From an uncultured Gammaproteobacteria bacterium (lineage in GTDB: Bacteria; Patescibacteriota; Patescibacteriia; 2-12-FULL-60-25), in the NCBI GenBank assembly GCA_964600845.1, contig CAZRJW010000002.1, positions 9,910-73,909 on the forward strand: DNA of 64,000 nt, in the 5' to 3' direction. The notes below the pieces were generated by a model that was not told where the DNA came from, did not search any database, and saw nothing but the letters and a program-made list of their open reading frames with translations. Of this stretch, positions 5,512 to 58,653 are shown piece after piece. The stretch's first letter is position 1; each line of letters begins with the position of its first letter. A program made the position numbers and the translations under genes.

Positions 5512-8046
5512 TTAGGTGGTACTTGGAATAGGTTGTTTCGGAAGGAGCTGGGTGGCTTTTCGTTTTTCGAGCCAGCGACGGATGCCTTCGACGGCGCCAA
5601 TGCTTCCGAGGGCAATGCCGATGGCGTTCCAGGGGAGGTTGGTGCTGCTTGGGCTGGTGGCGGCTGTCTTGGTGGTTGGCTCTGGATGACGAAGGATCAC
5701 AATGTCAGCCGCTTTCGAGGGTTGGATTTTCCAGACGCCACTTCGCCCATCAAAGATGCCGCTGACTTCGATTGTATCGCCTGTTTTTACGCGTTGCGCG
5801 CGATAGCCAAGGATGGCTTTGATCGGGATCGTTACTTCTCCAATCTGTGCCTCAAGCGTGATGGCGGAAGCGCGACTGTCGGTAACGAGGCCTTCGAGTT
5901 TGGTGAAGCTCCATTGATCTTCGATGCCGGGAGCGGTCCATTCAACGAGGCGTGGACTTGAAGTTGTGGTGAGCGCTACCGATTTCCAGGTATCGCCTGC
6001 TTCCATCTGAAGTTGGACCCCTTCATCATTCGCAAACAGGAGTCCGGTGATTTCAATTGTTTCGCCGAGTTGAGGACTGGGTTGAGCGGTTGTGGCTTTG
6101 ACAAGCAGGCCGCGTCCATCTGGGGCGAGGAGTACGAAGCGCTGCTTTCCAAAGACGCCAACCGTTGATCCGACCAAGCCTTGAAGCCGTACGCGAACAC
6201 GTGGCGTGAGCTGTTCGGCAGGGATCTGTTCGAAGTGAGTCACAGAAGAGGGGAGAACAAGAGATTTCTTAGTGGATGTTGCGGGAGCTTTTTTAGCTGT
6301 GGGTTTGGCTGTGGCCCTTTTCTTCGCAGGCGTTTTCTTGGGGACTGCAGTCTTCTTTTCGGTGGTATTACTGGATGAATCGGTGGAGCTCTTCGCAGCC
6401 GTTCCGAGAGTCTTAACTTCGCCTGTACTCTTCGGTGCAGTAGACGGGGGTGCAGATTGCTTAGCTGAAGCGACAGACTTGGGTTGAGTACCCGTCTTCG
6501 CTGTGACGGTCTTTGGAACGGGGGTTGCTTTCACCGCTGGTGTGGCTACGGTAGCCGCTTCAAACACGTTTGGAGCGTTCTTAGTGGGACGACGAGTGAG
6601 CTTCCAGGTGGATGAGAGATCATCTCTCATCCAAGAAGTGCCTTTCAAGCTCGCTCCATAGCGTACTTCTTGCGCAATTGTTCCGTCGGCACGTCTTAAT
6701 CGAACAAGCGCGCCAGCATTTTTCAGTTTCGCGGTTTTCCAAGCGGGAAGGAGATACGCTCCTTGAGGATTCAGGGCTTGGATCGTTGGAGCCGTCAACG
6801 AGAAGATGAGTTTTCCATCGGCTTCTAATTTCCAATCAATATAGCGGAGGGGGCTCGCGTTCTCTGGGAGTCTGAGCTCGATCCACTCTTCTTCGCCGGG
6901 AGCAGGGGCAGCCATGATTTCCGTGATAACCAGATCGAAGGCGGCGGAATCGAGAGGAGTTAAAACAGGAGCAGAACTTGGTGGAGCACTGGGGGGTATT
7001 ACAGCAGGAGAAGGTACGGCTACGGAGGAGATTGTAGACGTAACGTGTTCAATGGTGCTGGTTACAGGGGGAGTTGAAGTTGGGGTGATGACGAGTGTGG
7101 AAGTCCCCGACTCGAACGGGAGGATCTCGTCCGTACTTGTGACAGAAATGATTTCGGGAAGCTCGGGAGTTTCTTGTATCTCTGGTAGAGCTGATGTGCT
7201 CGTTGGGAGAGGAGCGGGTTCATAGGGGGAAGGTGCGGGTAAGTCAGATTGTTCTTCGATCAGGTCGGCAGGAGTCACTCCGTAGAGCAACTCCTCCTCC
7301 GGGTCTAAGAGAGGTGGCTCGGGCGCAGGCACGGGCTCTTCGGTGGGAAGGGTGCGTACTTCTTCCACCTCTTCGGGCAAGGGAATAGATTCGGTGACGA
7401 TAGGAGTGGTGCTGGTGGTTGCGGGAAGAGCGTTTTCAGCCCCTGGCTTTGGTATCGGCGTGCATTCATCACAGACGCCGGGAGTGCCAAGATCAGGAGC
7501 GCTCGGGTTGAAAACGCTTGTAGCCGACTTCCAAATCCATCCAGTCGTTGAAGCGGTTCTGATCATGCTCGTATTGAGTGGAGTGGAAGCGCCAGCCGGA
7601 GGCTTTGTTCCCGTTCCCGCGCTATCTCTGAGCGCACCGGTTTGATCACGCAGCTCAATCAAGAGGCGATCATTTGTAAGCGATAAGGTGCTGGTTGAAA
7701 GAGCGATGGTTTGGGTTGTGAGCAGCGTCTTATCCGATGTGTTCGTGTAGTTCGCGATGAGGAGCGTTTGTTGTGGAGCGATGCTGTCTGTCTGGGTGAA
7801 GAAGATAGGTGTATCGCTGACACCAGTGAGTGACCAGCCCGCAAGAGAGACGGGCTCGGTGCTAATGTTCCATAATTCGAGCCATTCATCTGCGGTCGAG
7901 CGGGAAGACCCAGACCACTGGATTTCACCGATGAGAATCTGAGTGGATGGTTCAAAGGCCAAGGTGGCTTGAAGCGGAGTGAATAAGGTACACCAAACCA
8001 ACAGAGACGAGAGCAGAGCTCGTCCCCTTGAGCTGGGGCGGGGCAT
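5512..8046 (-). CDS. large secreted lamin-tail-domain (LTD) protein with Pro/Thr/Ser linkers and C-terminal membrane anchor
   Basis: Signal peptide. Two LTD-like segments (IGEIQWSGSS..ADEWLELWNIS..VSLAGWSL; VITEIMAAPAPGEEEWIELRLPEN). Long PT/S-rich low-complexity region. OB-fold-like segments near the C-terminus. Terminal TM helix (LPWNAIGIALGSIGAV). Confidence 0.7.
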   Translation of the reverse strand: MPRPSSRGRALLSSLLVWCTLFTPLQATLAFEPSTQILIGEIQWSGSSRSTADEWLELWNISTEPVSLAGWSLTGVSDTPIFFTQTDSIAPQQTLLIANYTNTSDKTLLTTQTIALSTSTLSLTNDRLLIELRDQTGALRDSAGTGTKPPAGASTPLNTSMIRTASTTGWIWKSATSVFNPSAPDLGTPGVCDECTPIPKPGAENALPATTSTTPIVTESIPLPEEVEEVRTLPTEEPVPAPEPPLLDPEEELLYGVTPADLIEEQSDLPAPSPYEPAPLPTSTSALPEIQETPELPEIISVTSTDEILPFESGTSTLVITPTSTPPVTSTIEHVTSTISSVAVPSPAVIPPSAPPSSAPVLTPLDSAAFDLVITEIMAAPAPGEEEWIELRLPENASPLRYIDWKLEADGKLIFSLTAPTIQALNPQGAYLLPAWKTAKLKNAGALVRLRRADGTIAQEVRYGASLKGTSWMRDDLSSTWKLTRRPTKNAPNVFEAATVATPAVKATPVPKTVTAKTGTQPKSVASAKQSAPPSTAPKSTGEVKTLGTAAKSSTDSSSNTTEKKTAVPKKTPAKKRATAKPTAKKAPATSTKKSLVLPSSVTHFEQIPAEQLTPRVRVRLQGLVGSTVGVFGKQRFVLLAPDGRGLLVKATTAQPSPQLGETIEITGLLFANDEGVQLQMEAGDTWKSVALTTTSSPRLVEWTAPGIEDQWSFTKLEGLVTDSRASAITLEAQIGEVTIPIKAILGYRAQRVKTGDTIEVSGIFDGRSGVWKIQPSKAADIVILRHPEPTTKTAATSPSSTNLPWNAIGIALGSIGAVEGIRRWLEKRKATQLLPKQPIPSTT

Positions 8047-9530: not shown

Positions 9531-9674
9531 ACTCTTTTCACAATGTGCGGGGATAATAGCGGGAAATGAGAAACTTGCCAAGCTCCTTTTGAAACGGTCC
9601 CGTAAATGATACACTATGGGCGATTGACGGATTCGTTTAGCCCTTCAATCGATTGATGATCCTTTGGGACATTT

Positions 9675-12519
9675 CATGCGTGATCCTGCCTCCAGAGCGG
9701 ACCAAGAACCGGACGCGCTTTCTCAAGATGAACAGATCTTTTTAGATGGATTGCTCTCTCGAGTAGGTGGACCGGTTCCCGCACAGCCAGCGAAGCGTCG
9801 AACAAGAAGAAAACTTCGACGGAGTGCTTCGCGTACACAAAGTTTGCAGGACGCAGAATCGATTGAGCAGCCAACAATTCACCTCCGTACTTCACATAAG
9901 GGTCCAGTTCGAATCCCTGTTCAGCATCGTCCCCACACGCAGAGTCCTTTTTTGGTCACCGTCCAGGGATTGGTCCAGCCAATTTACGAAGAAGAGCGGT
10001 CTCCACGCGAGCATTCCATTCATGAGTGGGAATTACCCGCTGAGCTATCCGTTTCTTCCGAGGCGTTGCTTGCCGAAGCGTTGGATTTACACCTTCCTGA
10101 TGTTGATCCGTTTATTTTTCATCAGCAATTCACCCCAGGTGATGCGGATGTTGCGTATGCGCAGACCTATGGATTTTGGACACGTGTTCGTAGGCCCTTT
10201 ATTCGCTGGGAAGTCTCGCGTGCGGAAAAGCGAGCGAATGTCCCGGTAAGACCTGTTCAGGCTGTACGCGTTACAAGTGAAGAGCATCTTCTTCCGTCGG
10301 ACTTCGATTATCAGTGGACTACACAGACAGGAGCGAAGCGCACAGCCTTGCGGCACCAGCTAGCGCTTGTACGGCATCGCGTTTCTGCATTTTTCTTGCG
10401 CACAACTGAGACGATTGAAGATACAGTTACTGAATTTGAAGAGCGTGAGGAGGGAGTCATTACAGAGACTGAGCAAGCTTGGGGCGTACCTGTTTTGGTC
10501 CCACGGTTGGACTTCATAAAGATTTTTGGTGGGTTAGCAGCCTTACTCCTTGTTGCGAGTTTGCCTGCAGGGGCAGTTTCCTTGTCTCGCTCCTTCCGAG
10601 GGACAGTCGAACAGAGCTTGGGTCAGAGTCGATCGGCTGTGGAAGAGGTGACGCGCATGACCGACTCAGCGAATCCATTGTTGATGGCGCCATCGGCGTT
10701 GGCGGCTGCCTCTGAGCAGTTCCGTTTGGCTGAAGACGGGCTTCGCCAGGTGAATGGTCTTACGACCCTGATCGTGCGTTCGTTGCCACAGACTCGCGAA
10801 GCCTATCGAACGAGCGTCGCGCTGTTAGATGCGGGTACGCAGGCAACGAAGGCGGGTCGACTCGTAACGGAGGGCGTACAAGAAGCGCTCACCATGCAGG
10901 TCCGTCATCCTATTGAACGCATTACAACGCTTCAAACATTCGTGGATGCTGCGATTCCAACGCTTCGCAAAGCAAGTGATCGCATGGGGGATGTGAATGA
11001 GGAGCTCCTGCCTGAGGGGGAGCGAGAGAAGGTGGTTCAGGCGCGAACAGCGATTGAAGGTGGGTCACGTGCGCTGGAAGATATTTCCAAAACGCTTAGC
11101 TTTGCCCGTTTGCTGATGGGGGAGGCGCGTGAACAGACCTATCTCCTCGTGTTCCAAAACCAGGCAGAGCTTCGTCCAACGGGTGGATTCATGGGATCGG
11201 TCGCCGAGGTTATGATCGATCGTGGAGACATTGATCAAGTGTTTATCCCAGGAGGTGGCCCTTATGATTTACGTAGCCAGCTGAAGAGTCGTGTGCTCGC
11301 GCCAAAGCCTCTCCACCTTGTAAATCCACGTTGGGAGTTCCAAGACGCGAACTGGTTTCCAGACTTCGCCGCTTCGGCCGAAAAGATTAGCTGGTTCTGG
11401 AGTCAGGGCGGACAGTCCACGCTGGATGGGGTGATTGCGGTGAATGCCTCTGTCCTTGAGCCGCTCCTGCGCTTCACGGGCCCAATTGACCTGCCAGACT
11501 ATGGAAAGAGCTTCACGGCGGATAACATCCAGTTAGAGCTGCAAAAAGCGGTGGAACTTGAATACGACAAGACAGAAAACAAGCCAAAGAAGATCATTGG
11601 AGATCTCTTCCCAGTGTTGCTTGAGCGTCTCCGGAACGCCCCACCGGAGGAAACATTGAAGCTCATTTCTATTTTGGACGAGTCGCTCCGAAAGAAAGAC
11701 GTCCAATTATGGTTCCGTGATCAGGAGTTGCAGGCATACACCGAACGCTTTGGCTGGGCGGGCCGCATCAAGCCGACAAAGGGGGACGCTCTAAGTCTGA
11801 TTGAAGCGAATATCGGCGGCCAGAAGACGGATACCGTCATTCGAGAAGCGCTGGATCAACGGGTCCAGATCCTGCCGAATGGTCAGATTGAAACGACCGT
11901 CACCCTTGATCGTACGCATGATGGAAAACAAGGGCAGTTGTTCCGTGGGGCGAATAACGTCGAGTATGTTCGCTTGTATGTTCCGCTTGGTTCGGAGCTC
12001 CTTTCTGTTGAGGGGGTTCAACCGCCAACGACCACAGCGTACAAACTACCAATCGCCCAAGATCTTCCAGATCCTGATTTAGCGAGATACGTGAATTTGC
12101 CACGTGTCGGTCCAGCAGGGGTAGATATTACCCAGGAATTCGGCCGTACGGCCTTTGGTGCGTGGGTGCAGCTCCGACCAGGGGCAAGTTCTCGAACCGT
12201 GTTCCGCTATCGATTGCCGTTTACGGTTCAGGAGCTGTCCGAGCGAGCCATGTCTGACTACGGAGGAGCGACTCCAGAACGTGGAGGCGCCTATACGCTC
12301 TATCTCACCAGCCAATCAGGGAAGACGGATCGAAGTTTAAATCTCCACGTACACTACCCAGAAGCTTGGAACGTTCGTTGGTCGAATCGTGAAGACCTTA
12401 TCCAGAAGCCGGGCGTATTGACCTGGTCCGGCCCGATGGCCGAAGATCAGATTTTTGCCTTGTCCTTTGCCCTCCCTTCGTCCTATGAACAAACCACCGT
12501 CCGACAAGAAGGAGAGTAG
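9675..12519 (+). CDS. DUF4012-like large membrane-anchored extracytoplasmic protein
   Basis: 947-aa from ATG 9675. Internal TM helix (FGGLAALLLVASLPAGAV). Motif FQNQAELRPTGGFMGSVAEVMIDRGDI recalled as typical of DUF4012; from memory, not searched. Confidence 0.6.
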
Positions 12520-12526
12520 GCCGGTT

Positions 12527-14452
12527 ATGCGTAAGAAGGCGGCCTCCAAACCGATGAAGGCGGAGCTGGTTGAGATTGAGGAGGGTGGGCGCGAGGGTGA
12601 GTCTGTCGAAGAGCGATTATCGAATATCTATCGTGATGATCAAGGAGATCTTCCCGATTTTAATCAATTCGACCGAAAGCGAAGCTTTTGGTGGCTACGT
12701 ACGACCGCGTGGATTGTAGTGGTGACATCGATTGTGAGTGTTTGTGCGTGGGCGGGCTTTATGGCTTGGCGCCCGTGGCGTACGGATGGACCACCCGCGA
12801 TCGCTTTGCGGATTGAAGCACCCGGTGAAATCAGTCCCGGAAAAGAAGAAGAGATCCGTATCTATTGGGAGAATACGGACTTGCGTCCAGTACGCGAAAC
12901 GGATCTACGGGTTTTTTTACCGACCGACTTTGTTTTGCAGAAAGCAACGCCTGTTCCGACCAGCGCTTCGTCCACCCTGTGGTCCTTAGGGCTTCTCCCT
13001 CCGCAACAAAAGGGGATAATTACGCTACGAGGGGTTTTTTATGGAGCTACCGATCGCCAAGCGACGATTCAGGCGCTGGCTACCTATCGCTATGATTCGC
13101 TTGATCGAGAGCGACAGCTCGCAGAGACGCTCCGCTTGGCCTACACGACTTCAACGGTTAACGGTGTTCTCACAGCTCCAGAGCGTATGTTGCCCGGCGA
13201 CCAGGTGACGCTTCGCTATCAAGTGACGAATCGTTCGGACCAGGTTCTTGGGCCACTCGTTGCTCGTTTTGTTTTGCCAGATGGGTTCGTGGTCTCGGCT
13301 TCGTCTTCACCTGGCTTGAATCAAGAGGGGCAGACACTGACCTTCCCGATCACGCGTCTGCCACCGGGATCGGTGACAACGCTTCAAGTTGGTGGAACGA
13401 TGCTCTCGGGTCATCCGGGGGATGCGCTTATCACAGCCGCGGTTGGCCGAGCGGATGTGCGTGGGGTCTTTGTTTCTTTGGCAATGTCGGAGGCTCGTTC
13501 CGTGGTCTTGGCGGGGGATCTGGCTCTGCGACTTATCGTGAATGGCAGTCCGACAGAATCCCCAATTGATCCAGGGACGCCACTTCGTATCACGTTAGGC
13601 TACGAAAATACGAGCGGAGAAGAGTTGAAGAACGTTTCTTTGACGCTTTCAACGGAATCATTGATAAACGCCAAACGACAGGCGGGGACAGTTGGGCTGA
13701 TCCAGTGGAGTGCGCTCGAAGATCTTCAGCGCGCAGCTTCGAGCACCAAAGGGCAGACGCAGACCTTGAAACTCACCTCGGCTCAGGTCCCAAGTCTCGC
13801 TTCGCTCCCAGCAGGAGCGAAAGGCTCGTTTGATTGGATTATTCCCATACGGAGCGCCCCAACAGGCACGCGAGACGCTGTCATTCAGGTCGGGGCTCTC
13901 GCACATATCGACCGCGTTGGAGCGACCGTGGGAGCACGAGATGTTCGTGTGATGCCTTTCAATTTACGTTACAAGACGGATGCAGATCTACGCGTAGAAG
14001 CGCAGTACGCAACCGAAGAAGGGGCGCCGATCGGTTTTGGTCCGTTGCCGCCAGAAGTAGGAAAGACCACCGGCTATCGAGTGAACTGGCGTATCACAAA
14101 GAAAGTGCATGAATTGGATCGAATTACCGTTAAAGCAAAGTTACCAGCCATCGCGACCTGGACAAAAAATATTCAAGTCGAACGCGGAACGGTGACCTAC
14201 GATGAAGCGACCCGCGAAGTTCGTTGGACGATCCCGAGTCTTCCACTCGATGTCGCGAGCATAGCAGCTTCCTTTGATGTGCAGGTGACGCCAGCGCGTG
14301 CAGATGTGGGGCGGTTCGCGCCGCTCATTGGAGAAGCGACGTTCGAAGCGCAGGATAAACAATTAAATACACCGCTTTTACGAGTAAAACCAGCCCTTAC
14401 GACGGACCTCCCTGGTGATGAGCTTGCGCGTGGCCGTGGTGTCGTACGCTAA
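12527..14452 (+). CDS. hypothetical membrane-anchored protein with repeated beta-sandwich-like segments
   Basis: ATG 12527, preceded by aaggagag (one of the few SD-like sites in native genes). TM helix (WWLRTTAWIVVVTSIVSVCAWAGFMAW). Reiterated segments such as ..L.Y.NTS...L.NV. Confidence 0.55.
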   Translation: MRKKAASKPMKAELVEIEEGGREGESVEERLSNIYRDDQGDLPDFNQFDRKRSFWWLRTTAWIVVVTSIVSVCAWAGFMAWRPWRTDGPPAIALRIEAPGEISPGKEEEIRIYWENTDLRPVRETDLRVFLPTDFVLQKATPVPTSASSTLWSLGLLPPQQKGIITLRGVFYGATDRQATIQALATYRYDSLDRERQLAETLRLAYTTSTVNGVLTAPERMLPGDQVTLRYQVTNRSDQVLGPLVARFVLPDGFVVSASSSPGLNQEGQTLTFPITRLPPGSVTTLQVGGTMLSGHPGDALITAAVGRADVRGVFVSLAMSEARSVVLAGDLALRLIVNGSPTESPIDPGTPLRITLGYENTSGEELKNVSLTLSTESLINAKRQAGTVGLIQWSALEDLQRAASSTKGQTQTLKLTSAQVPSLASLPAGAKGSFDWIIPIRSAPTGTRDAVIQVGALAHIDRVGATVGARDVRVMPFNLRYKTDADLRVEAQYATEEGAPIGFGPLPPEVGKTTGYRVNWRITKKVHELDRITVKAKLPAIATWTKNIQVERGTVTYDEATREVRWTIPSLPLDVASIAASFDVQVTPARADVGRFAPLIGEATFEAQDKQLNTPLLRVKPALTTDLPGDELARGRGVVR

Positions 14453-38864: not shown

Positions 38865-39674
38865 ATGATGAACGAAGAACAGCAACCAACCTCCGCGCCA
38901 GAGGCGCCAGAAGCAGCAGCTGCTCCAGCTGCTGAAAACACAGCCGCTCCAGCGGCAGCGGCGGCAACGCCAGCTGCAGCTCCTGCGTCTGCTTCGGCTG
39001 CAGCACGTCCATATGGTGGAGGTGCCCGTGGTCCAGGCGGTGGCTTCCGTGGCGGAAGCCGCGGTCCAAGCGGAGGTGCTCGTGGCGGCCAGGGTGGTCG
39101 CGGCGGTGCTGCCGGTGGTCGTGGAGGTCGAGGTCCAGGCGGCCCAGGTGGTCGCGGTGGACGTCGCGATGGTCAGTCTGGAGATGTTCCAGCCGAAGCC
39201 GACTACGACGAAAAGAACTTGGAAGTCTCACGTGTTACACGTGTGACCCAGGGTGGAAAGCGCATGCGCTTCCGCGTGTTGAGCGTGATCGGAAACCGCA
39301 AGGGACGTGTTGGATATGGCTTGGCAAAAGGATTGGATGTCGCAGCTGCTTCCACCAAGGCCGCAACCAAAGCACGCAAAGCCCTTCTGACAGTTCCACT
39401 CATCAACGAAACAATTCCTCACATGGTGCGTGCAAAGGCGGGTGCCGCTGTCGTCTTGTTGAAGCCAGCGCCAAAAGGAGCTGGAATCAAAGCCGGTGGT
39501 GCAACGCGTGCCGTACTTGAAATCGCTGGTGTACCAAACGTTGTTTCGAAGCTCCTCGGATCTTCCAACAAGGTGAACGTCGTGCGCGCAACTTTTGCCG
39601 CCCTGCGCATGCTCCGCATGCCAATCAGCAAGACGGACGATAAACAGCCTAAGGAAGACGCTCCAAAGGCCTAA
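38865..39674 (+). CDS. rpsE: 30S ribosomal protein S5 with ~105-aa Ala-rich plus RGG-repeat N-terminal extension
   Basis: Core VSRVTRVTQGGKRMRFRVLSVIGNRKGRVGYGLAK..., preceded by AAAPAAENTAAPAAAAATPAAAP...GGARGPGGGFRGGSRGPSGGARGGQGGRGGAAGGRGGRGPGGPGGRGGRRDG. Confidence 0.93.
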   Translation: MMNEEQQPTSAPEAPEAAAAPAAENTAAPAAAAATPAAAPASASAAARPYGGGARGPGGGFRGGSRGPSGGARGGQGGRGGAAGGRGGRGPGGPGGRGGRRDGQSGDVPAEADYDEKNLEVSRVTRVTQGGKRMRFRVLSVIGNRKGRVGYGLAKGLDVAAASTKAATKARKALLTVPLINETIPHMVRAKAGAAVVLLKPAPKGAGIKAGGATRAVLEIAGVPNVVSKLLGSSNKVNVVRATFAALRMLRMPISKTDDKQPKEDAPKA

Positions 39675-41992: not shown

Positions 41993-43405
41993 ATGCAACG
42001 TGAAGATGGACATCTGTTCAAGCTCCTGCCGCCGCCAGCCCATCTGCCACAATACACCGACTCTGCGCTGAAGAGCGTGTCGTATTTTGGTCACACGAAC
42101 TTCGTCAGCGGACTCTATCGATCGCGGACGGTTTTTGGGATTAAGCGAACAGATCGTCGTCGTCACATCTACTTGATTGGGAAGAGCGGTATGGGGAAGA
42201 CGCGCCTGCTCGAGCAGTTGATTCGGTATGATATTGCTGCGAATGAGGGAGTAGGTGTCATCGATCCGCACGGAGACTTAGCTCGGACGCTTTTGGATTT
42301 TATTCCGAAATCGCGTATTCAAGATGTGGTTTACGTGGACCCAGCGGACGCTGAGCATCCAATTGCGTTTAACCCGTTTGCGCGTGTCGATGCGACCCAG
42401 CGTCAAAATGTAGCACAAGGACTGGTAGAAATTTTCAAGAAACAATTTACGAGCAGCTGGTCGCCGCGCATGGAGCACTTGTTCCGTTTTGCGACCTTGG
42501 CGATTTTAGAACACCCAGAAGGGACGTTGTATGAATTATTACGGTTGCTGACGGATGCACAGGCGCGTCAACAAACAATTTCGCATTTGACGGACGATAT
42601 TGTGAAGCGGTTCTTTGCGGTTGAGTTTGCGAGCTTTAGTCAGAAGTATGACCACGAAGCGATTACGCCGCTTACGAACCGGTTAGGGCAGTTTTTTGCT
42701 GATCCATTGCTGCGATCCATTTTTACGAAGAAAGAAAATAAGATCGATATTGAATCGATCATGAATGAAGGGAAGATTCTCATTGTGAACGCGTCGAAGG
42801 GGTTATTGGGTGAGGATAATAGCGCCCTCTTGGGAGCGTTTTTCCTGACAAAGATTAACCAGGTCGCGATGGCGCGTTCACGTGTTGATGAAGATGAGCG
42901 CCGAGAGTTCTATCTTTACGTGGATGAATTCCAGAATGCCGCGACACAATCGTTTTCTTCATTGTTTTCGGAATCACGTAAATACGCGGTGAATATCACG
43001 ATCGCAAACCAGTATCTTGGGCAGATTCCTCCTTCGCTGCTTGAAGCGATCTTTGGAAACGTGTCGACCTTGATCGCGTTCCGATTGGGAGGAGGGGACG
43101 CCGATCGGATTGCAAAAGAGTTTATGCCCCTCGTTGAGCCGCATGACCTCATTAACTTAGGTGCACGCGACTTTTATATTAAAATGTCGGTTGATGGGCA
43201 AACGACGGCGCCTTTTTCAGCACGAACGTTGGATGTCGTGCCAGCCAAGCAATCGTATGCAGACGCGGTGATTCAATTATCACGTACTCAGTACAGCGCT
43301 ACACGTACAAAAGAGATGCCCGCGATCATATCTTCGCCGTTTATCTCCTCGATTGAAACGGAAGAGATGTCGGCAGAGGAGCTCCTCCCTCCGCCGGTTG
43401 TGTAG
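41993..43405 (+). CDS. VirD4/TraD-like (coupling-protein-type) P-loop NTPase
   Basis: Walker A IGKSGMGKT; Walker B FYLYVDEFQN; NITIANQYLGQ. No N-terminal TM helix. Confidence 0.6.
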   Translation: MQREDGHLFKLLPPPAHLPQYTDSALKSVSYFGHTNFVSGLYRSRTVFGIKRTDRRRHIYLIGKSGMGKTRLLEQLIRYDIAANEGVGVIDPHGDLARTLLDFIPKSRIQDVVYVDPADAEHPIAFNPFARVDATQRQNVAQGLVEIFKKQFTSSWSPRMEHLFRFATLAILEHPEGTLYELLRLLTDAQARQQTISHLTDDIVKRFFAVEFASFSQKYDHEAITPLTNRLGQFFADPLLRSIFTKKENKIDIESIMNEGKILIVNASKGLLGEDNSALLGAFFLTKINQVAMARSRVDEDERREFYLYVDEFQNAATQSFSSLFSESRKYAVNITIANQYLGQIPPSLLEAIFGNVSTLIAFRLGGGDADRIAKEFMPLVEPHDLINLGARDFYIKMSVDGQTTAPFSARTLDVVPAKQSYADAVIQLSRTQYSATRTKEMPAIISSPFISSIETEEMSAEELLPPPVV

Positions 43406-45773: not shown

Positions 45774-46715
45774 ATGCTCGGTCGTACTCTCGTCCCTCTT
45801 TTTTCTGCACTTATCCTTCTAGGATCTGTGCAAGCTGTATCAGCTGCCTTGTATGATGCTTCTATTAGCTCAGGTGATATTTCCTTTTCGCCGGAAGAAT
45901 TGATTTTGGGGGATGCGACCCGTATTTACGCTACGATTTCAAATGCAGGCGACCGAGATGTCGAAGGCACGGTTCGTTTTTATGATAATGATACCTTGAT
46001 TGGCGCGAAGCCTTTTTCTATTCGTGCGAATCTTCGGCCGGAAGACGCTTGGGTGCGTTGGTCACCGCAGGTATACGGATCTCATACCATTCGAGTGGTG
46101 GTGGATAATGATCCAGCATTTACAGACGGAACTCCTGGGAATAATACGGTAACCGTGACGGCTTTTGTCGACCGAGACACCGATCGGGATGGGGTTCCGG
46201 ATCAGCAAGATGAAGATCGAGATAATGACACGATCTTGAATCGTGATGAGGTCACACGTGGAACGGATCCCTTTAATCGAGACACGGATGGGGATGGCGT
46301 GGATGATGCGAAGGATGTCTTTCCGCTGGATTCAAGACGATCTGTGACACCGCCCCCAGTCCCGACATCAACGGCAAGGGTGGTGGCGCCTGTTCCCACG
46401 CGTCCTCGTGTTGCCGCACCTACCCCAACGGTTACTCAGGCACCTACGGTACGGAATGTGGTGCCTGCACCGAGTTCGTTAACGATGCCTGCCACAAGCT
46501 CACCTCTGATCCTTGAACCAACCTCTACTGTGGTGATGGTTGAGGTTACATCGACGCCCGCGCTCCCCGTGATGGAGCCAGTCGCGCCTCTTGCCGTTTC
46601 TTCGACGTCAGTACGCCCTGCACCATCAAATCCCTGGAATGCTATTTTAGCTGCAGCAGCTGTTCTTTCTGCTGGTGCGGCGGGGATGTTTGTCTGGCTT
46701 GGCCGCAGGTCCTAG
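45774..46715 (+). CDS. secreted protein: CARDB-like domain, thrombospondin-type-3 Ca-binding repeats, PT-rich stalk, C-terminal TM anchor
   Basis: Signal peptide. DRDTDRDGVPDQQDEDRDNDTILNRDEVTRGTDPFNRDTDGDGVDDAKD. Terminal ILAAAAVLSAGAAGMFVWLGRR. Confidence 0.6.
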   Translation: MLGRTLVPLFSALILLGSVQAVSAALYDASISSGDISFSPEELILGDATRIYATISNAGDRDVEGTVRFYDNDTLIGAKPFSIRANLRPEDAWVRWSPQVYGSHTIRVVVDNDPAFTDGTPGNNTVTVTAFVDRDTDRDGVPDQQDEDRDNDTILNRDEVTRGTDPFNRDTDGDGVDDAKDVFPLDSRRSVTPPPVPTSTARVVAPVPTRPRVAAPTPTVTQAPTVRNVVPAPSSLTMPATSSPLILEPTSTVVMVEVTSTPALPVMEPVAPLAVSSTSVRPAPSNPWNAILAAAAVLSAGAAGMFVWLGRRS

Positions 46716-49781: not shown

Positions 49782-51531
49782 TTAGTAGTTTGGAATGCAG
49801 GCCTCCAATTGTTCGAGTGTAGGTGGAGCGACGCTGTCTGTACGCGAAACGTTTCTGAGTTCCTGGCGAATGGAATCGGCTCGTCGTCTGGCGCCTGGGA
49901 CCCCTCCACGACACCCAAGCTCAACGAATTTTTCAAGGAAGCAGTCGATGCGCTCGCTTTCGCTCGCACCTGAATGAGAGCGACAAGCCTCGAGCACGAT
50001 TCCAAATCCGGCACCGCATCTTCCCGGGTTATTTGCGACGGTTGCCCACATGGCTTGGCCATAGGACGAACGAAAACCATGACTTGCGGCGGCTCTCACT
50101 CGCTGAGAGTATTTTTCGTACGAGTCTTGGAGCTGGGCGAGTGCGAACGCTCTCGTTGGGAGTGCAGTCTGAAGCATGTTTCGATAGTCCGCATTGCAAA
50201 TAAACCCACGATCCGTCTGATTGGATGCGCAGAGTGCAGAGGCGGACGTGTCACGATTGTTTCCGGCGGTCACGACGCGATTGTAAACAGCCGCATCTTT
50301 TTGTTGAAGTTTCCGCATTAATTGAGGGAGGTTTTGCTGCATATACCCTAAAATTCCGTAGGTACCTCCATCGAGCCCTTCAAGCGATCGGAACGTCTTT
50401 CCGGTACAGTTCCCAGTAACGGAAGCGAGGAATTGTCCATAAGAACCACCACATCTGCCAATTAGCGCTGGACAGGCGGGATCTGGACCTCCAACGATTG
50501 TGGTACCGCAGGAGACTTGGCTTTGGCAGGCAGCACACCAGACGGTGCTGTTGTTTGGTCGTGGTCGAGCGGCAAGTGTTTGCCGGCAAAAGCGTGCGGG
50601 CCCGGCTCCTGTCGCAGTCCCGGTCGCGCCTTCTTCGGCTGAGCGATCTGGGTCCGCATCTCTAGCGATGCTGTCATAGGCACTGTCGTCGGATGGTGGT
50701 ATCGCTTGAACATGCTGGACGCGAACCGGATTCATTTCGACCAGCTTCGGATTGATCGTCTTCAAGATCAAGAAGCTACTAAGAAGAACTACCAGCCCAA
50801 TAAAGGCATCTTGGATAATCGTTTTCCCATCAGACACACCCGGAGCAGAAGCCGACAGCATGTAGCGGAACCCTCCATAAACAATCATGATGGCTGCCAA
50901 AATCGCACCTAATCCAACGGATAGGCGATAAATACCCGAGATGTATTGCGCGAGATAGGGGACGCTAATAATGCCACCCTCCTCGGTTGCGGGGGTGAAA
51001 CGAACACCCGGGATTGGTACGGCGGGGTTTGGTGGGATGGGGGTGAATGGGCGTTGGGCGGCAGGCTCTGTTCCGCCCGCAATCGCCTCATCTGCCGGAC
51101 TTTGGACCGTTGTTGTTGGAGGAGTGGTTGGGGGTGTTGCAGGAGGTGTGGTTGTGCCGGCTGCAGCGGCCCTTGTCGCACAGCTCGCCCGAACGGGATT
51201 GCTTCCGATCGCTCGATTGAGGCTTTCTGCAAACGACGGTTCACAGGCTCTGGAGATCGTACAGCTAAAGACACTAGGATCAAATCGACCACTTAAAGGA
51301 GCGTTTTCGCAGCCTGAGCGTGCTTCTGATCGCTGGTCGCTGGTCGCTGGTCGCTAAACTAGCAAGTTCGCTTGGAGACCTGCCTGAAACTATACCCGTC
51401 CCGGTGATGGTACAGAGACAGCTCGACGCTTGCGCGAACGCGAGACCAGGTATGGTCAGGCCGATAATCAAAAATGAGAGGGTCGAGACGGCGAGAAGAT
51501 CCCTCAGACGCTTACTCCAATGAAGAGGCAT
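49782..51531 (-). pseudogene. frameshift-interrupted (candidate phase-variable) surface protein: signal peptide, Cys-rich region, PT linker, T4SS-pilin-like 2-TM module, Cys-rich C-terminal domain
   Basis: Frame A (ATG 51531, MPLHWSKRLRDLLAVSTLSFLIIGLTIPGLAFA) stops at 51280. Frame B is open from 51353 to 49782 but has no ATG/GTG/TTG for ~150 codons before TTG 50900. The two frames meet in a 7-nt repeat tract. The pilin-like core is GGIISVPYLAQYISGIYRLSVGLGAILAAIMIVYGGFRYMLSAS..GKTIIQDAFIGLVVLLSSFLILKTI. Confidence 0.6.
51327..51354 (-). repeat. heptanucleotide tandem repeat (GCGACCA)x3 plus degenerate GCGATCA on the coding strand
   Basis: Plus strand tgatcgc-tggtcgc-tggtcgc-tggtcgc. A unit length of 7 is not a multiple of 3. 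Confidence 0.9.
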
Positions 51532-51538
51532 ACGCGTA

Positions 51539-52795
51539 TTACAAACGCATCTTAATGAGCTGACCGCTATTTCCATCTGTTACAAAGGCGGATTGCCCAT
51601 CGCCTGAAACGCGCACTGCACGCACGGCTACGTTAGGGCCTGGATCGCCAAGTGGAGTGACTTGTCCATTTGCAAGATCGAGTTTGAAGAGTGTATCTGG
51701 GCCGACATCGAACAATGTTCGTTGTAAACCAGCTCCATTTGGCATTTCCTTTGGAACGCCACAGATAACCGTTGTTCCATTTGCCCATGTGCATTTGTCT
51801 GCCCAGGTTTCGATACTCATACGTCGACGATTCGCGTTCACTTCATCGCCCGAGGCGCCACTCAACCAGAGAGAGGGGCGATAGCCTTCGTCACCGCTCC
51901 ATACGCTGTACAGGAGCTGGGATCCATCCGGGGACCAATTTGGAGTAAAGCCACGTCCTTCCACGATGAGACCTTTAAAATTCTCCTGATTTTTTCCGAC
52001 GAGTAAAATCTGTTCACGATTTGCGCCCATGGCTTCGCCTGTTCGAGAAAAAGCGACGGTTTGGTTGTTCGGTGCCCAGCTTACCAATACCTTGTCCTGG
52101 TTATTCCCAAGTTCCTCAATTGGACGAGGTTCGGATCCGTCGCTGCCGGCAACGATTAAGAAGCGGTTGGTTGGGTTGCTCCCTAAGCTTTTGGCTACAA
52201 TTTGATCATCGTCAGGGGAGAATTGAAGCTCTTGCCAATAGCGGGGGATGGTCGTTTGTTTGTCTTGGGAGAAGTCGTAGATCACCTGATTTCCATCTGG
52301 GAAGCCTAATACAGCTTTCTCGCTCTTGTTTCCCCAAGTGATGCGATCAACGTTTGGGAAAACAGTTTCAGACAACGGAACCTTTGTTCCATCATCGAGG
52401 ATAGAGTAAAAACGTCCATCATTTGGATCATAAAAACGAATCGCGTTTCCACCGCCTTTCGTTGTTGCGATAGGGAGGCGTACGTCTTGAGCGATTACCG
52501 ACACGCGTGGCGCATCTGGTAGAAGCGAGTTATCCGGAAGCGTTGGAATTTCTCCTAGATCCACCGATCCCGTATTCTGGGCCGGTTGGAGGCTTCCATC
52601 GCCCAAATTTCCAATCGTACCGGGTGTTCCATCCTGTGCGCGTGGAAGGGAATTTCCGGTTCCGGGAAGTTGTGTTCCTGGAGTCTCCGTTGGTCGTATT
52701 GCTCGGAAGAAGAGCAGATACAAAACCGTCGCGATCCCTACGACCGCGAGAATGAAGAGGAACACAAAGAGCAGCTTCTTGCGACGTTCGTCCAT
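51539..52795 (-). CDS. membrane-anchored TolB-like beta-propeller (PD40 repeat) protein
   Basis: N-terminal TM helix. Repeats such as FSPDDDQIVAKS, VSWAPNNQTVAFS, PNWSPDGSQLLYS. Confidence 0.6.
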   Translation of the reverse strand: MDERRKKLLFVFLFILAVVGIATVLYLLFFRAIRPTETPGTQLPGTGNSLPRAQDGTPGTIGNLGDGSLQPAQNTGSVDLGEIPTLPDNSLLPDAPRVSVIAQDVRLPIATTKGGGNAIRFYDPNDGRFYSILDDGTKVPLSETVFPNVDRITWGNKSEKAVLGFPDGNQVIYDFSQDKQTTIPRYWQELQFSPDDDQIVAKSLGSNPTNRFLIVAGSDGSEPRPIEELGNNQDKVLVSWAPNNQTVAFSRTGEAMGANREQILLVGKNQENFKGLIVEGRGFTPNWSPDGSQLLYSVWSGDEGYRPSLWLSGASGDEVNANRRRMSIETWADKCTWANGTTVICGVPKEMPNGAGLQRTLFDVGPDTLFKLDLANGQVTPLGDPGPNVAVRAVRVSGDGQSAFVTDGNSGQLIKMRL

Positions 52796-54421: not shown

Positions 54422-54984
54422 CTATTTTTGCTCGTCAGGGATGAACGCGAGCGCGTCACCGTTCATACAATAGCGGAGACTTGTGGGTTCTGGCCCGTCA
54501 GAAAAGACATGGCCGAGATGGTCTCCGCATTTCGAGCGAATCTCTGTTCGTTCCATAAATAGACCTTCGTCCTTTTGTTCGATGACCGCGTCGGGTTTGA
54601 TCGGAGCCTAAAAACTGGGCCAGCCCGTGCAAGAATCGTATTTCTGTTCAGAGCGGAAGACAGGCCCGCACAATCTGCGGTTACGTAGGTACCAGGCCGT
54701 TTTTCATCCAAGAGCAGGCTGGTGAAGGGTGTTTCCGTCCCGGCTTCACGCAGGATGTGGCACTGCTCAGGCGATAAAATACTCTTCCAGTATTCCTCGG
54801 TGCGAGTAGCTTTCACAGGGTGATTCACCCGCTGTCTGGAGATTCGTACCCCAAATCCACCCACCATAAGAAGAGTGGCGAGTGCCGTGATACCCGTGTA
54901 TCGGGTGTGGGTTTCGTTGGGATTGGCAGCGTAGAGTGAAAATGATTTTAGGTTGTGGCAGGAGTTTCTTCTACGGTGGTACAC
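54422..54984 (-). pseudogene. msrB: membrane-anchored peptide-methionine (R)-S-oxide reductase MsrB, disrupted by a 1-nt deletion and an in-frame TAG
   Basis: Track ORF gives ...ILSPEQCHILREAGTETPFTSLLLDEKRPGTYVTADCAG, then loses similarity. Shifting +1 at ggcc^tgtc (~54662) restores [78 protein letters not shown]. Confidence 0.7.
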
Positions 54985-55679
54985 ACCTGTATCAGGGTTT
55001 CAACGAGGTCAAAGAGCAAGTCAGCTGCTTCACGATCTTTTAATGTAACCAGCTTGCATTGTTTGCGTGTTTCTTCGTACTGAGGCGCGGATAAAAAAGA
55101 AAGAAACTTGCGTAGATACTCAGGTGAACGAATGTACATGTTACAGAGCTCAACCGTATCTTCTATGACCTGCATATCCACTCCTTGAGCTGCGTAGACT
55201 CGAAGAGATCCAAGGGTAGAAAAACCCTTCCCTGTACTTATTCTTGCTGCCTTTATTTTTTGAACAAGCAGGCTATGAAGTTCTTTGGCATCAGGAATTT
55301 TCTGTGCTAAGTCCTCAACAAGGTGATGCGTTAGTTCATGAGAGAAACGATACGCGACTTCAGCTTCAGGAGTGAAACTTGCTTCATCAAATAAGATAAG
55401 ACTTCGTTCTTGAGGTGATAATAGCTTGAGTCCAACCTGCAATATTCTGAAACGATCAGTTTCAATGGTCGTACCACTATGCCAATTATTTGGATCCACC
55501 TGGACTCGGTCTGGGAAGCATCCATTACGATCGAGAGCTAGAGTGACAGCTTCTCCATGTTGCGTTTGAGTTCCTAACAAATCAAAAAGCTGACCTGCCG
55601 CCTCCTCTGGTCTTTGTCGAGCGGTTTCAATCAACTTCGTATGCCAACTTTTCGGACCAGCCATCTCGTAATGATTCAT
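54948..55679 (-). CDS. hypothetical protein with HExxH motif (putative metallopeptidase)
   Basis: YRFSHELTHHLVEDL. No signal peptide. Confidence 0.45.
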   Translation of the reverse strand: MNHYEMAGPKSWHTKLIETARQRPEEAAGQLFDLLGTQTQHGEAVTLALDRNGCFPDRVQVDPNNWHSGTTIETDRFRILQVGLKLLSPQERSLILFDEASFTPEAEVAYRFSHELTHHLVEDLAQKIPDAKELHSLLVQKIKAARISTGKGFSTLGSLRVYAAQGVDMQVIEDTVELCNMYIRSPEYLRKFLSFLSAPQYEETRKQCKLVTLKDREAADLLFDLVETLIQVCTTVEETPATT

Positions 55680-56354: not shown

Positions 56355-58106
56355 CTAGCCGAAGGTGAAGGTGTAGGCTTCCAGTCCGCTCGCTTCCGCT
56401 TCAAGTTCGAGTAGGTGTTGGCCAGCACCGGCTGTGTCGTTGATGAGATGGTAGAGCTGCTCATCCTTAATCAAGGCATAGCTTTGGTCACCTTCAAAAA
56501 AGATGTCTGATCCGGCGGTCTCGCGTGTCAGTGGTTTTCCATCGCGGGTGACCTTGAGCTTCACGGGCTTGATAGCGCTCGCAACAAAGAAGACATTGCG
56601 TGCCGTATAGCGATAGATGATCTGAGCGTTTCGTGTTTTATTCTCCGCGCGTTCCCCATCGAAATTCCAAGTTCCTGCGAGGTATAGCGCATTTTGAGCA
56701 ATATCGGTTGGACGTTCTAATTGTTGTTCGCCACGTGTACCGAACCGACCGTTTGCGAGCGTGCTGTTTCGGTCCGAGCCGAAGTAGACTTCAGGGCTTT
56801 GATCGCGTGTTGGACTACTCGTCTCTTGCGGTTTGACTGCTCCTGTTGGTACCGATAGCACGGCTTGATTGTCGCGCGCCATCTTTTCACGCAGGAGTTC
56901 TTGAATCTTCTTTTCTGTTTCTTCGTAGCCACCTTCTCCAATATGATCGTAGACCACTTTGCCGTCGATATTAATTAAGTATTTACGTGGCCAGTAGTTA
57001 TTCCCCCAGGCATTCCAGGTGCCATAGTCATTATCCAGAACGACAGGAAATGTGATCCCATATTTTGTCATCGCTTTTTTGACGTTTTCAAGATTCTTTT
57101 CAAATGCGAATTCTGGCGTGTGGATGCCGACGACCTCGAGGCCTTGGTCCTTGTACTTATCGTACCAAGCGTTGAGATAGGGGAAGGTGCGAATACAATT
57201 GATGCAGGTGTAGGTCATGAAGTCGACCAGAATCACTTTCTTTCCCACAAGGCCACCGAGCGTCACGCTTGAGGTGTTTACGAAGCCAGAGGGATTTGTA
57301 ATTTCACGATACTGCGGAAACATCGTGTCGGCAGTTGCTGTCGGAGAAAGGGTGCCTGAGTTCAGTGCAGGCGTATCCATCTTTTCTGTCGATTGAAGAA
57401 TCGTTTGTTCGAAGTTCGTAATATTAAAGTAACCTTTTTCTAACAAGAATGTTTGTACGCGCTTGTCCGCTCCCGTCAGGATGAAGATTCCGACCAGGAT
57501 GAACAAAATACCTAAGCTACGTTTGAACCATCCATTCGGATTTGCTGCCCAGCGCGCTTTTTGAATAAAGCGCTGTCCAAGCAAGCTGATCAAGAGCAAG
57601 ACGAGGGCGAGTCCAAGGGCATAGGCGATTAAATACACGATCCCCGTCGCGAGGCTGCGAGGGAGAACCGTTGCGAGAATGAGGAAATACGTAGGTGAAC
57701 AGCTTGAGAAGACTGGTCCGAGGGATAGACCGATCAACACATCACCTAGACGAGTTTTCTGTTCACGGGATGAGTTCAGGAGTTGTTCCGACCGGTTGGC
57801 GAGACCGAGCTTCACGCTGATGGCGTCCCAGGCTCTTGGGAAGAGGCTGATTAGTCCGAAGATAATAAGGATGCCTCCTGAAATCGCGCTCCAGACACCC
57901 TGAGGAATGTTGATGAAGGCGGTGCTGAACTTGAGGGCGAGTGTAAATAATACGATCGCGACGGCGAGTGATCCGGTGATGATGTACGGATTACGCTTTT
58001 GTCCGCCTTGAACGGAGCCACCGATAATGATCGGCAGAACCGGCAAAATGCAGGGCGCGAGCACCGTAAGCGCGCCCGACAAGAAAGAAATGAGGAGCAG
58101 CAGCAT
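56355..58106 (-). CDS. CcdA/DsbD-type thiol-disulfide transporter fused to an extracytoplasmic thioredoxin-like (TlpA/redoxin) domain and a C-terminal beta-rich domain
   Basis: N-terminal 6-TM region with LAPCILPVLP. Central FMTYTCINCIRTFPYLNAWY (CxxC). Confidence 0.7.
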   Translation of the reverse strand: MLLLLISFLSGALTVLAPCILPVLPIIIGGSVQGGQKRNPYIITGSLAVAIVLFTLALKFSTAFINIPQGVWSAISGGILIIFGLISLFPRAWDAISVKLGLANRSEQLLNSSREQKTRLGDVLIGLSLGPVFSSCSPTYFLILATVLPRSLATGIVYLIAYALGLALVLLLISLLGQRFIQKARWAANPNGWFKRSLGILFILVGIFILTGADKRVQTFLLEKGYFNITNFEQTILQSTEKMDTPALNSGTLSPTATADTMFPQYREITNPSGFVNTSSVTLGGLVGKKVILVDFMTYTCINCIRTFPYLNAWYDKYKDQGLEVVGIHTPEFAFEKNLENVKKAMTKYGITFPVVLDNDYGTWNAWGNNYWPRKYLINIDGKVVYDHIGEGGYEETEKKIQELLREKMARDNQAVLSVPTGAVKPQETSSPTRDQSPEVYFGSDRNSTLANGRFGTRGEQQLERPTDIAQNALYLAGTWNFDGERAENKTRNAQIIYRYTARNVFFVASAIKPVKLKVTRDGKPLTRETAGSDIFFEGDQSYALIKDEQLYHLINDTAGAGQHLLELEAEASGLEAYTFTFG

Positions 58107-58110
58107 ACGA

Positions 58111-58653
58111 TTAGATTATTTGGGCGACGATGGATTGAAGCGTCGAGCCGCCACTCCACTTTTTTAGCAGCGTTCCTTGGGCATCAACTTGCACAAATGT
58201 GTGCTGGTAGGTGACGCCATACTTCTTTTTCAGTTCTGTCGAGGAGTCGTAATCCACAATGAGTAACGAGAGATCATTCGGAAGGCCTTTAAGATGGTTC
58301 TTTATATCCGTGTTAACCGTTTTGCATGTTGGGCACCACGGTGCATAAAAGAATAAAACAACATTCCCTGTTTCTGCCCGGCTAAGTTTTGATGCTTCAT
58401 AGGCTTCGTAGCTCCCCTCGGTGTTCACGAGTATGTTCGTTGCAATCATGGCACTGGTTGATGTCATGGAATTTGAGGCTTCCATTCGTCCCCCAGAAGC
58501 AGGTTCTATAACAGGTTCCATTTTTTGCATTGCAGCCGGTTGTGCGGCTGGCTGCATAGGTTGAGAATTTAGTTTGGATGGACCTTCGCAGCCAGCACCA
58601 ACAAGGATCAAGACGGAAAAGGCTGAGAGAAGGAGGGTGGGGAGTTTGAACAT
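58111..58653 (-). CDS. thioredoxin-family lipoprotein
   Basis: Lipobox LVGAGC; FFYAPWCPTCK (WCxxC). Confidence 0.8.
   Translation of the reverse strand: MFKLPTLLLSAFSVLILVGAGCEGPSKLNSQPMQPAAQPAAMQKMEPVIEPASGGRMEASNSMTSTSAMIATNILVNTEGSYEAYEASKLSRAETGNVVLFFYAPWCPTCKTVNTDIKNHLKGLPNDLSLLIVDYDSSTELKKKYGVTYQHTFVQVDAQGTLLKKWSGGSTLQSIVAQII

Follow-up and report, generated by a model that had tools for sequence, protein, structure and literature searches.

The window analysed here, a 64,000-nucleotide (nt) stretch of contig CAZRJW010000002.1, carries on its minus strand a gene for a putative envelope protein whose reading frame is broken at a short tandem repeat of the heptamer GCGACCA. The broken allele has four repeat units, and intact alleles of the same gene, seen in five further assemblies of this species, have three. 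We consider it probable that this gene, which is conserved in bacteria of the candidate phyla radiation (CPR), was nulled by a recent, one-off slippage event at a mutational hotspot, an event that would be revertible at a low rate. The locus is at most a proto-contingency site and is best described as a natural slippage knock-out.

Alleles with three and four repeat units

The elements of the broken gene are as follows.

51327-51354, minus strand: heptamer tract (GCGACCA)x3+GCGATCA, one unit above the intact alleles and the site of the frame break
51280-51531, minus strand: open reading frame (ORF) of 83 codons plus stop, truncated product of the broken allele (ATG 51531, stop 51282-51280)
49782-51353, minus strand: start-less rest of the gene, 523 codons plus stop, in the +1 frame relative to ATG 51531

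Tandem Repeats Finder placed the tract at 51326-51355 (period 7, 4.3 copies, 95% matches, score 53). The 83-codon ORF begins MPLHWSKRLRDLLAVSTLSFLIIGLTIPGLAFA, has Q as its next residue and passes through the heptamer tract before it stops; in its product, the signal peptide and then 31 native residues of the N-terminal domain precede 19 out-of-frame residues (PAIRSTLRLRKRSFKWSI). A TAG at 51356-51354 and the stop at 49784-49782 bound the 523-codon frame, whose first ATG, GTG or TTG is a TTG at 50900, 151 codons in. The short ORF, the position of the tract, the second frame and the run of about 150 codons lacking any start codon, all described in an initial annotation of the window made from the sequence alone, were thus reproduced. 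The two frames are fused by deletion of one unit (580 codons) or addition of two (587 codons), and reading the codons across the junction gave ...SLATSDQRSEARSGCENAPLSGRF..., as the same annotation had proposed. In-frame tract lengths lie three units apart (3, 6, 9), and four units are out of frame.

When one unit was removed conceptually, the resulting 580-amino-acid (aa) fusion was identical to a database protein, P0001 (100% identity, 100% coverage), and the product of the 523-codon frame corresponds without any difference to residues 58-580 of that protein. The suspicion that the two frames are one gene split by exactly one repeat unit was therefore borne out. The intact gene, encoding P0001 or the single-residue variants P0031 and P0033, was found in five other assemblies of the species, at the following loci.

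L001: GCA_020049755.1
L002: GCA_020047435.1
L003: ERZ27249659
L008: ERZ27249654
L009: ERZ27249658

In all five, the tract reads GCGACCA GCGACCA GCGATCA, i.e. three units against four in the window, with identical flanks and, as far as the contigs reach, the same gene neighbourhood. Only one variant length thus occurs among the six haplotypes. Alignment of the window with L001-L003 placed the 7-nt gap at 51349-51355. Compared with L001 and L002, this indel is the sole difference in the 1743-nt gene, and neighbouring genes differ by 1-5%; the slippage event would accordingly be younger than any substitution in the gene, and no pseudogene decay is seen. The broken allele appears to have had no time yet for decay.

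Orthologues at 83% (L010), 72% (L004) and 58% (L011, L012) identity each consist of one uninterrupted ORF and share the gene neighbourhood, and in these the Cys-rich N-terminal domain is contiguous with the remainder of the protein, in agreement with the earlier statement that the second frame is no independent gene. Heptamer periodicity at the homologous site is absent from all four (L010, L004, L011 and L012). The residues at the site are ATSDQRSE in the species of the window and ATNESQRTE, ATADQRTQ and VTDDHRAT in the 83%, 72% and 58% orthologues, respectively. Because the orthologues are single ORFs without this periodicity, the four-unit state is the derived one. Differences within the species amount to 31 synonymous versus two non-synonymous changes in the gene. 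The ratio of non-synonymous to synonymous substitution rates (dN/dS) was 0.085 against L010 and 0.073 against L004, and 0.10-0.22 against orthologues for the N-terminal domain alone. These values indicate that the gene is functional and under strong purifying selection.

Products of other tract lengths were also looked for. The only database protein resembling a gene call on a broken allele was P0034 (359 aa, beginning MLSAS...); as its 74,047-nt NCBI contig bears the exact EF-G of the window too, it is the window's own record. Exact look-ups for the truncated fragments of the window and for the products of alleles with one, two, five or six units, a weak test, returned nothing. Scanning of JGI metagenome contigs by a DNA pattern (tract flanks with a variable gap) gave no match, and protein-seeded scans of metagenome contigs and GTDB genome contigs gave distant or partial loci only. 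Searching for homologues of the truncated 83-aa peptide gave no match and missed even P0001, hence it was uninformative. Copy number in related genomes, the comparison proposed by the initial annotation, is four units in the window against three in five otherwise near-identical alleles. The outcomes which that annotation had named as speaking against it, namely the same copy number throughout with a conserved break, two separately initiated genes in the orthologues, or an assembly error outside the repeat, were not encountered.

Slippage knock-out or contingency switch

According to the reading that we favour, a single and very recent slipped-strand duplication would have converted (GCGACCA)2GCGATCA into (GCGACCA)3GCGATCA. 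The ancestral three-unit state is in frame and gives the 580-aa protein; the extra unit shifts the frame after codon 64, so that translation ends 19 codons on. The tract would be the most slippage-prone site of the gene, presumably comparable to the (CTGG)3 hotspot of Escherichia coli lacI, and could both mutate forward and revert, with reversion probably somewhat easier from the broken allele because of its longer perfect repeat. The null allele may then have reached majority in one population via drift, hitch-hiking or selection for loss of the surface protein. A gain or loss of one unit in a repeat of two to three copies is an ordinary frameshift. With two to three perfect units, a hotspot rate of very roughly 1e-7 to 1e-6 per generation is expected, and dedicated phase-variable loci switch at 1e-5 or more per generation. 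Farabaugh and co-workers reportedly identified (CTGG)3 in lacI as a short-repeat frameshift hotspot in 1978. Like that site, the tract of the window repeats a short non-triplet unit two to three times, and one-unit slippage at it gives revertible null alleles, with no regulatory role implied; it differs in its unit of 7 nt instead of 4, and in being a natural polymorphism from a metagenome instead of the outcome of a mutation screen.

Several points weigh against a one-off event. One assembly has the null allele as its consensus despite strong constraint elsewhere, and such a frequency would be easier to reach by frequent switching or by selection for the OFF state. The presence of three units in all five intact consensus sequences does not strongly argue against hypermutability, because in-frame lengths are three units apart and such sequences are expected under either model. 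Moreover, the tract lies early in the gene, just past the signal peptide of an exposed protein, which is the layout expected of a switch. A three-unit tract is also unlikely by chance, with about 0.01 expected per 64 kb and about 0.16 per Mb by a rough hand calculation, and no heptamer tract of three units appeared in 30 shuffles of the window. An argument based on chance codon choice was dropped: the tract was noticed because it had mutated, so its presence says nothing on design.

The alternative suggested by this layout is a true contingency locus, i.e. a selected, hypermutable heptamer switch with the surface protein ON at three or six units and OFF otherwise, with which a population of epibionts could hedge its bets against pressure from phages, host surfaces or predators. 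We regard it as unlikely. In its favour, the non-triplet unit lies inside an ORF, 26 codons past the signal-peptide cleavage site and within a gene for predicted extracellular Cys-rich domains, and a change in its length alters the frame, four units breaking it and three or six restoring it. There is a natural pair of ON and OFF alleles that are otherwise 100% identical, and the OFF allele is free of secondary decay. The locus bears further signs of diversification, as the 3' part is the same in alleles with and without the N-terminal domain and the flanking sequence is a mosaic, and VirB2-like genes of CPR bacteria are often amplified and variable (bioRxiv 10.1101/2025.01.22.634366).

The tract itself speaks against a dedicated switch. 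It has three perfect units and one imperfect unit in the window and two plus one in the intact, ON alleles, compared with a working cut-off of at least five copies for putative phase-variable tracts with units of at least 4 nt (PMC6321876). The authors of this cut-off note that even tracts of at least five copies may include ones mutating below 1e-5 (PMC6321876). The known heptanucleotide tracts of Haemophilus influenzae comprise 6-38 units (PMC2651432). Furthermore, the tract is specific to the species and not maintained in the four orthologues L010, L004, L011 and L012; a single variant length was seen among the six haplotypes; and products of other tract lengths were not found in the exact look-ups, weak as this test is. 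No further such repeat occurs within the 64 kb: the window has no second non-triplet repeat (unit of 4, 5, 7, 8, 10 or 11 nt, at least three perfect copies) and no G/C homopolymer of at least 7 nt, A/T homopolymer of at least 8 nt or dinucleotide run of at least five units. Frameshifts in short repeats are, in addition, the commonest ordinary indels.

Known systems allow the same comparison. In H. influenzae, heptanucleotide loci include AATTTTG x14 in hmw1A and AACAACC x8-13 in the homologue of HI1369 (PMC2651432). In these as in the locus described here, the gene of an exposed protein contains a 7-nt unit in its ORF, a change in copy number truncates the product, and copy numbers differ between strains. 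The window differs from them (6-38 units) by its two to three perfect units, by its single variant length and by orthologues without the tract, and it shows no group of comparable loci. A gene with hypervariable PTD 9-mer repeats in a Gracilibacterium, the nearest case found in CPR, likewise combines tandem-repeat polymorphism in a probable CPR surface protein with slipped-strand mispairing as the invoked mechanism; that repeat is long, in frame (9 nt) and alters the protein, whereas the tract studied here is short, out of frame and abolishes it (PMC6851277). Full-text searches on phase variation in CPR, Patescibacteria or Saccharibacteria turned up no report of a frameshift-type case in CPR. 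The mechanism would be ordinary slipped-strand frameshifting, and its form resembles the intragenic heptanucleotide phase variation of Haemophilus.

Of the switch proposed by the initial annotation, the variation in copy number that breaks the frame therefore stands; the short tract, which is missing from orthologues, has one variant length and is the only one in the window, does not fit it. We are rather doubtful that slipped-strand changes in the tract reversibly turn a disulfide-rich, pilin-anchored surface protein of an Uhrbacteria-like CPR bacterium ON and OFF as a working switch.

It is improbable that the break arose in assembly or consensus building or represents a minority variant, in which case the organism of the sample would really have three units and the extra unit would stem from mis-assembly, polishing or a minor bubble path. 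The window does come from a metagenome-derived contig, and all five other assemblies have three units. Against this, the 28-nt tract is shorter than the reads and the usual final k-mers, and an insertion of exactly one repeat unit is atypical of assembler or read errors. The surrounding several kb are 100.0% identical to other assemblies in long stretches, without any other coding indel; no other broken gene was noticed among about 35 ORFs scanned; and the genes for EF-G, SecY and the ribosomal proteins that were checked are intact. Even the choice of a bubble path would mean that the variant is present in the population.

That the break is bypassed or intended, through programmed ribosomal frameshifting, transcriptional slippage or the presence of two separate genes, has nothing in its favour beyond the two adjacent frames and is extremely improbable: conspecific alleles and orthologues are single continuous ORFs, the downstream frame has no ATG, GTG or TTG for 151 codons, the tract is not homopolymeric and, as read from the sequence, contains no slippery X XXY YYZ site, and the only Rfam matches in the window are three tRNAs. 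The two-gene reading and programmed frameshifting were rejected on the grounds of the single-ORF orthologues, the missing start and the missing slippery site.

Domain architecture of the intact protein

The 580-aa protein encoded by the intact allele is divided as follows; the layout combines features read from the sequence, a profile search and an AlphaFold2 (AF2) model with its predicted local distance difference test (pLDDT) and predicted template modelling (pTM) scores.

51433-51531, minus strand: predicted Sec-type signal peptide, aa 1-33 (basic n-region, hydrophobic core, AFA and then Q, as read from the sequence)
51171-51432, minus strand: N-terminal Cys-rich ectodomain, aa 34-118, six Cys, interrupted by the tract
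50970-51170, minus strand: Pro/Thr-rich linker, aa 119-185 (AF2 pLDDT below 50)
50760-50945, minus strand: two-helix membrane hairpin, aa 194-255, matching PF18895, T4SS_pilin (profile search, AF2, hydrophobicity)
about aa 276-308: acidic linker
49785-50600, minus strand: C-terminal Cys-rich all-alpha ectodomain, aa 309-580, 14 Cys (AF2 pLDDT 81, pTM 0.80)

The signal peptide is reflected in a Kyte-Doolittle hydrophobic segment at aa 9-39 and an AF2 helix at 5-25. Hydrophobic helices also span about aa 189-257, where AF2 modelled helices 189-224 and 231-257 as a helical hairpin; the full-length model is of low confidence (pLDDT 64), and only the separate, confident model of the C-terminal domain was usable. 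The match of the intact protein to PF18895, the type IV secretion system (T4SS) pilin family, had E=4.3e-4 and 20.8 bits over profile positions 8-69 of 71, which is below the curated cut-off of 26.6 bits. Among homologues, 12 of 13 matched at E<=0.01 (best E=2.7e-6), some of them with a precomputed PF18895 hit. The hairpin module therefore looks homologous to PF18895, at a sub-threshold score. The layout outlined in the initial annotation, with a signal peptide, a Cys-rich segment, a PT linker, a T4SS_pilin-like module of two transmembrane helices and a Cys-rich C-terminal domain, was recovered, the pilin match (E=4.3e-4) being below the cut-off. The protein departs from a T4SS pilin in this score and in its size, since it is not small and its 580 aa include two extra large domains.

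As in the VirB2-like PF18895 proteins of CPR bacteria, a signal peptide and a two-helix hydrophobic hairpin occur here in a patescibacterial host (bioRxiv 10.1101/2025.01.22.634366). Those pilins have about 100 aa, whereas the hairpin in the window sits in a 580-aa protein between two large Cys-rich domains, and among the ORFs scanned neither virB4 nor a pilin array was seen beside the gene. The variability of the CPR VirB2-like arrays has been interpreted as host adaptation (bioRxiv 10.1101/2025.01.22.634366). If the signal peptide is cleaved and the hairpin is arranged as in VirB2, the two Cys-rich domains would face outward, outside the cell. Because relatives with a hairpin about 70% identical bear a Peptidase_C39_2 domain instead, the hairpin seems to serve as an anchor for ectodomains of various kinds in general. 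The Cys-rich N-terminal domain is present in some orthologues and missing from some close alleles.

The C-terminal domain belongs to a rare family, for which a search of 1.84 billion representatives gave only 37 clusters at E<=1e-3. Many of its members (P0035-P0069) are stand-alone secreted proteins of about 300 aa, and a GLDGxT[FY]GI motif and about 12 cysteines are conserved across the family. No Pfam match was obtained for the domain or for 21 relatives, and a sequence search of the PDB was also without match. The top Foldseek neighbours in the PDB and in a viral library were chitosanases of glycoside hydrolase family 46 (GH46) and GH46-like phage proteins, at scores that are not significant (TM 0.30-0.54, query- or target-normalised; E=0.3-3). 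This lysozyme-superfamily fold (PDB 7xh0, 5hwa, 4qwp and 1qgi; BFVD phage models) was the recurrent best neighbour in two libraries. It differs from the domain, which has no sequence-level match, contains 14 cysteines and shows no obvious counterpart of the catalytic Glu of GH46. The conserved LDGxT[FY]GI motif resembles the DG(RG)YTxGIxGF region of GH46, which is a lead only. A muramidase-like relation to GH108, put forward speculatively in the initial annotation, did not hold up: Pfam and PDB sequence searches gave no support for it and the weak fold matches point to GH46 instead, so GH108 was rejected. Neither family was matched significantly, and the catalytic acid and base were not found. 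A relation of the modelled domain to the lysozyme superfamily is a lead, not a finding.

Neighbourhood, allele mosaic and host lineage

Two further genes of the window are placed as follows.

51539-52795, minus strand: upstream PD40/beta-propeller gene, with its stop 7 nt before ATG 51531
41993-43405, plus strand: TrwB/VirD4-like ATPase, 470 aa (TrwB_AAD_bind at 35.8 bits, above the curated cut-off; T4SS-DNA_transf)

As only 7 nt separate the PD40 stop from the ATG, the PD40 gene and the broken gene are probably co-transcribed. This arrangement is kept in L001, L002, L010, L011 and L014; in L003, L008, L009 and L012, an upstream gene at the same 7-nt spacing is cut by the contig end and has no family call. 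The immediate neighbours comprise the PD40 protein, a DEAD helicase, a 521-aa unknown protein and VTT and NAGPA proteins. The gene for the TrwB/VirD4-like ATPase is flanked by secY/pyrophosphatase and adk/map where the ribosomal protein operon ends, 6.4 kb from the broken gene. It was the only T4SS-like gene noticed, and virB4 was not seen among those window ORFs that were scanned. At 56355-58106 (minus strand), a gene encodes a fusion of a DsbD-type membrane domain with Redoxin and Thioredoxin_10, next to which lies a separate thioredoxin gene at 58111-58653 (minus strand). Lying 5-7 kb away, these would provide disulfide handling for the Cys-rich secreted proteins encoded nearby.

Several further observations concern the variation of the locus. 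The gene is 99-100% identical across the six assemblies, while flanking genes differ by up to 5-12%. The near-identical alleles P0030/L013, P0032/L006 and P0003/L014 have a different signal peptide and no Cys-rich N-terminal domain, and L013 shows 100% identity downstream of about 50780 but diverges upstream of it. Sequence comparison of L013 and the alleles lacking the N-terminal domain thus implies, in our view, a recombination breakpoint within the gene and a modular N-terminus.

Other genes of the window were recorded in passing. A 173-aa ORF at 54463-54984 (minus strand) matches only positions 1-37 of 116 of the SelR/MsrB profile and overlaps by 37 nt an upstream 243-aa ORF (54948-55679, minus strand) for which no family was matched. 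As L001 has a call for the 173-aa product too, this break is not specific to the window, and the ORF may be a divergent or remodelled MsrB. Probable large surface proteins are encoded at 5512-8046 (minus strand; Lamin-tail domain, 844 aa), 9664-12519 (plus strand; DUF4012, 951 aa) and 12455-14452 (plus strand; DUF11, 665 aa), the latter with a 65-nt same-strand overlap with the DUF4012 ORF; a further member of this group, a CARDB/Ig-like protein, is encoded at 45774-46715 (plus strand).

The host was treated as a CPR-type organism in the initial annotation, and two features agree with this. The nearest named relatives of its EF-G, at 80-84% identity, come from the Patescibacteria group and from Candidatus Uhrbacteria. 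Only 11 nt separate the end of the S5 gene at 39674 from the start of the L15 gene at 39686, which leaves no room for L30; the lack of L30 at this place is a hallmark of CPR. Ribosomal protein S5 (38865-39674, plus strand) has an N-terminal extension of about 110 aa with a 33-nt tandem repeat (1.9 copies, 39026-39088). Relatives of the studied gene occur on contigs of about 0.9 Mb. Orthologues also lie on two short contigs, L004 (CAYUCP010000049.1) and L005 (CAZRDS010000091.1), that are binned as 'uncultured Gammaproteobacteria bacterium', and L004 shares flanking genes with the window as well; this label is probably a binning error.

Should switching of the tract occur at an appreciable rate, this locus would provide the first case of repeat-driven phase variation in CPR, would mean that ultra-small epibionts use stochastic surface variation towards hosts or phages, and would represent a contingency tract at a very early evolutionary stage (three units, species-specific). 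Culture-based tests of surface variation in the host contact of CPR episymbionts are almost impossible, and this locus is testable with existing metagenomic reads. Read conservatively, it is a clean, validated case in which a strongly conserved envelope protein of CPR was knocked out in nature and for which the exact intact allele is known, and it should therefore be annotated as a frameshifted allele, not as two ORFs. On the same conservative reading, the locus shows an allele-specific recombination mosaic and points to a rare family of Cys-rich ectodomains fused to a VirB2-like membrane hairpin.

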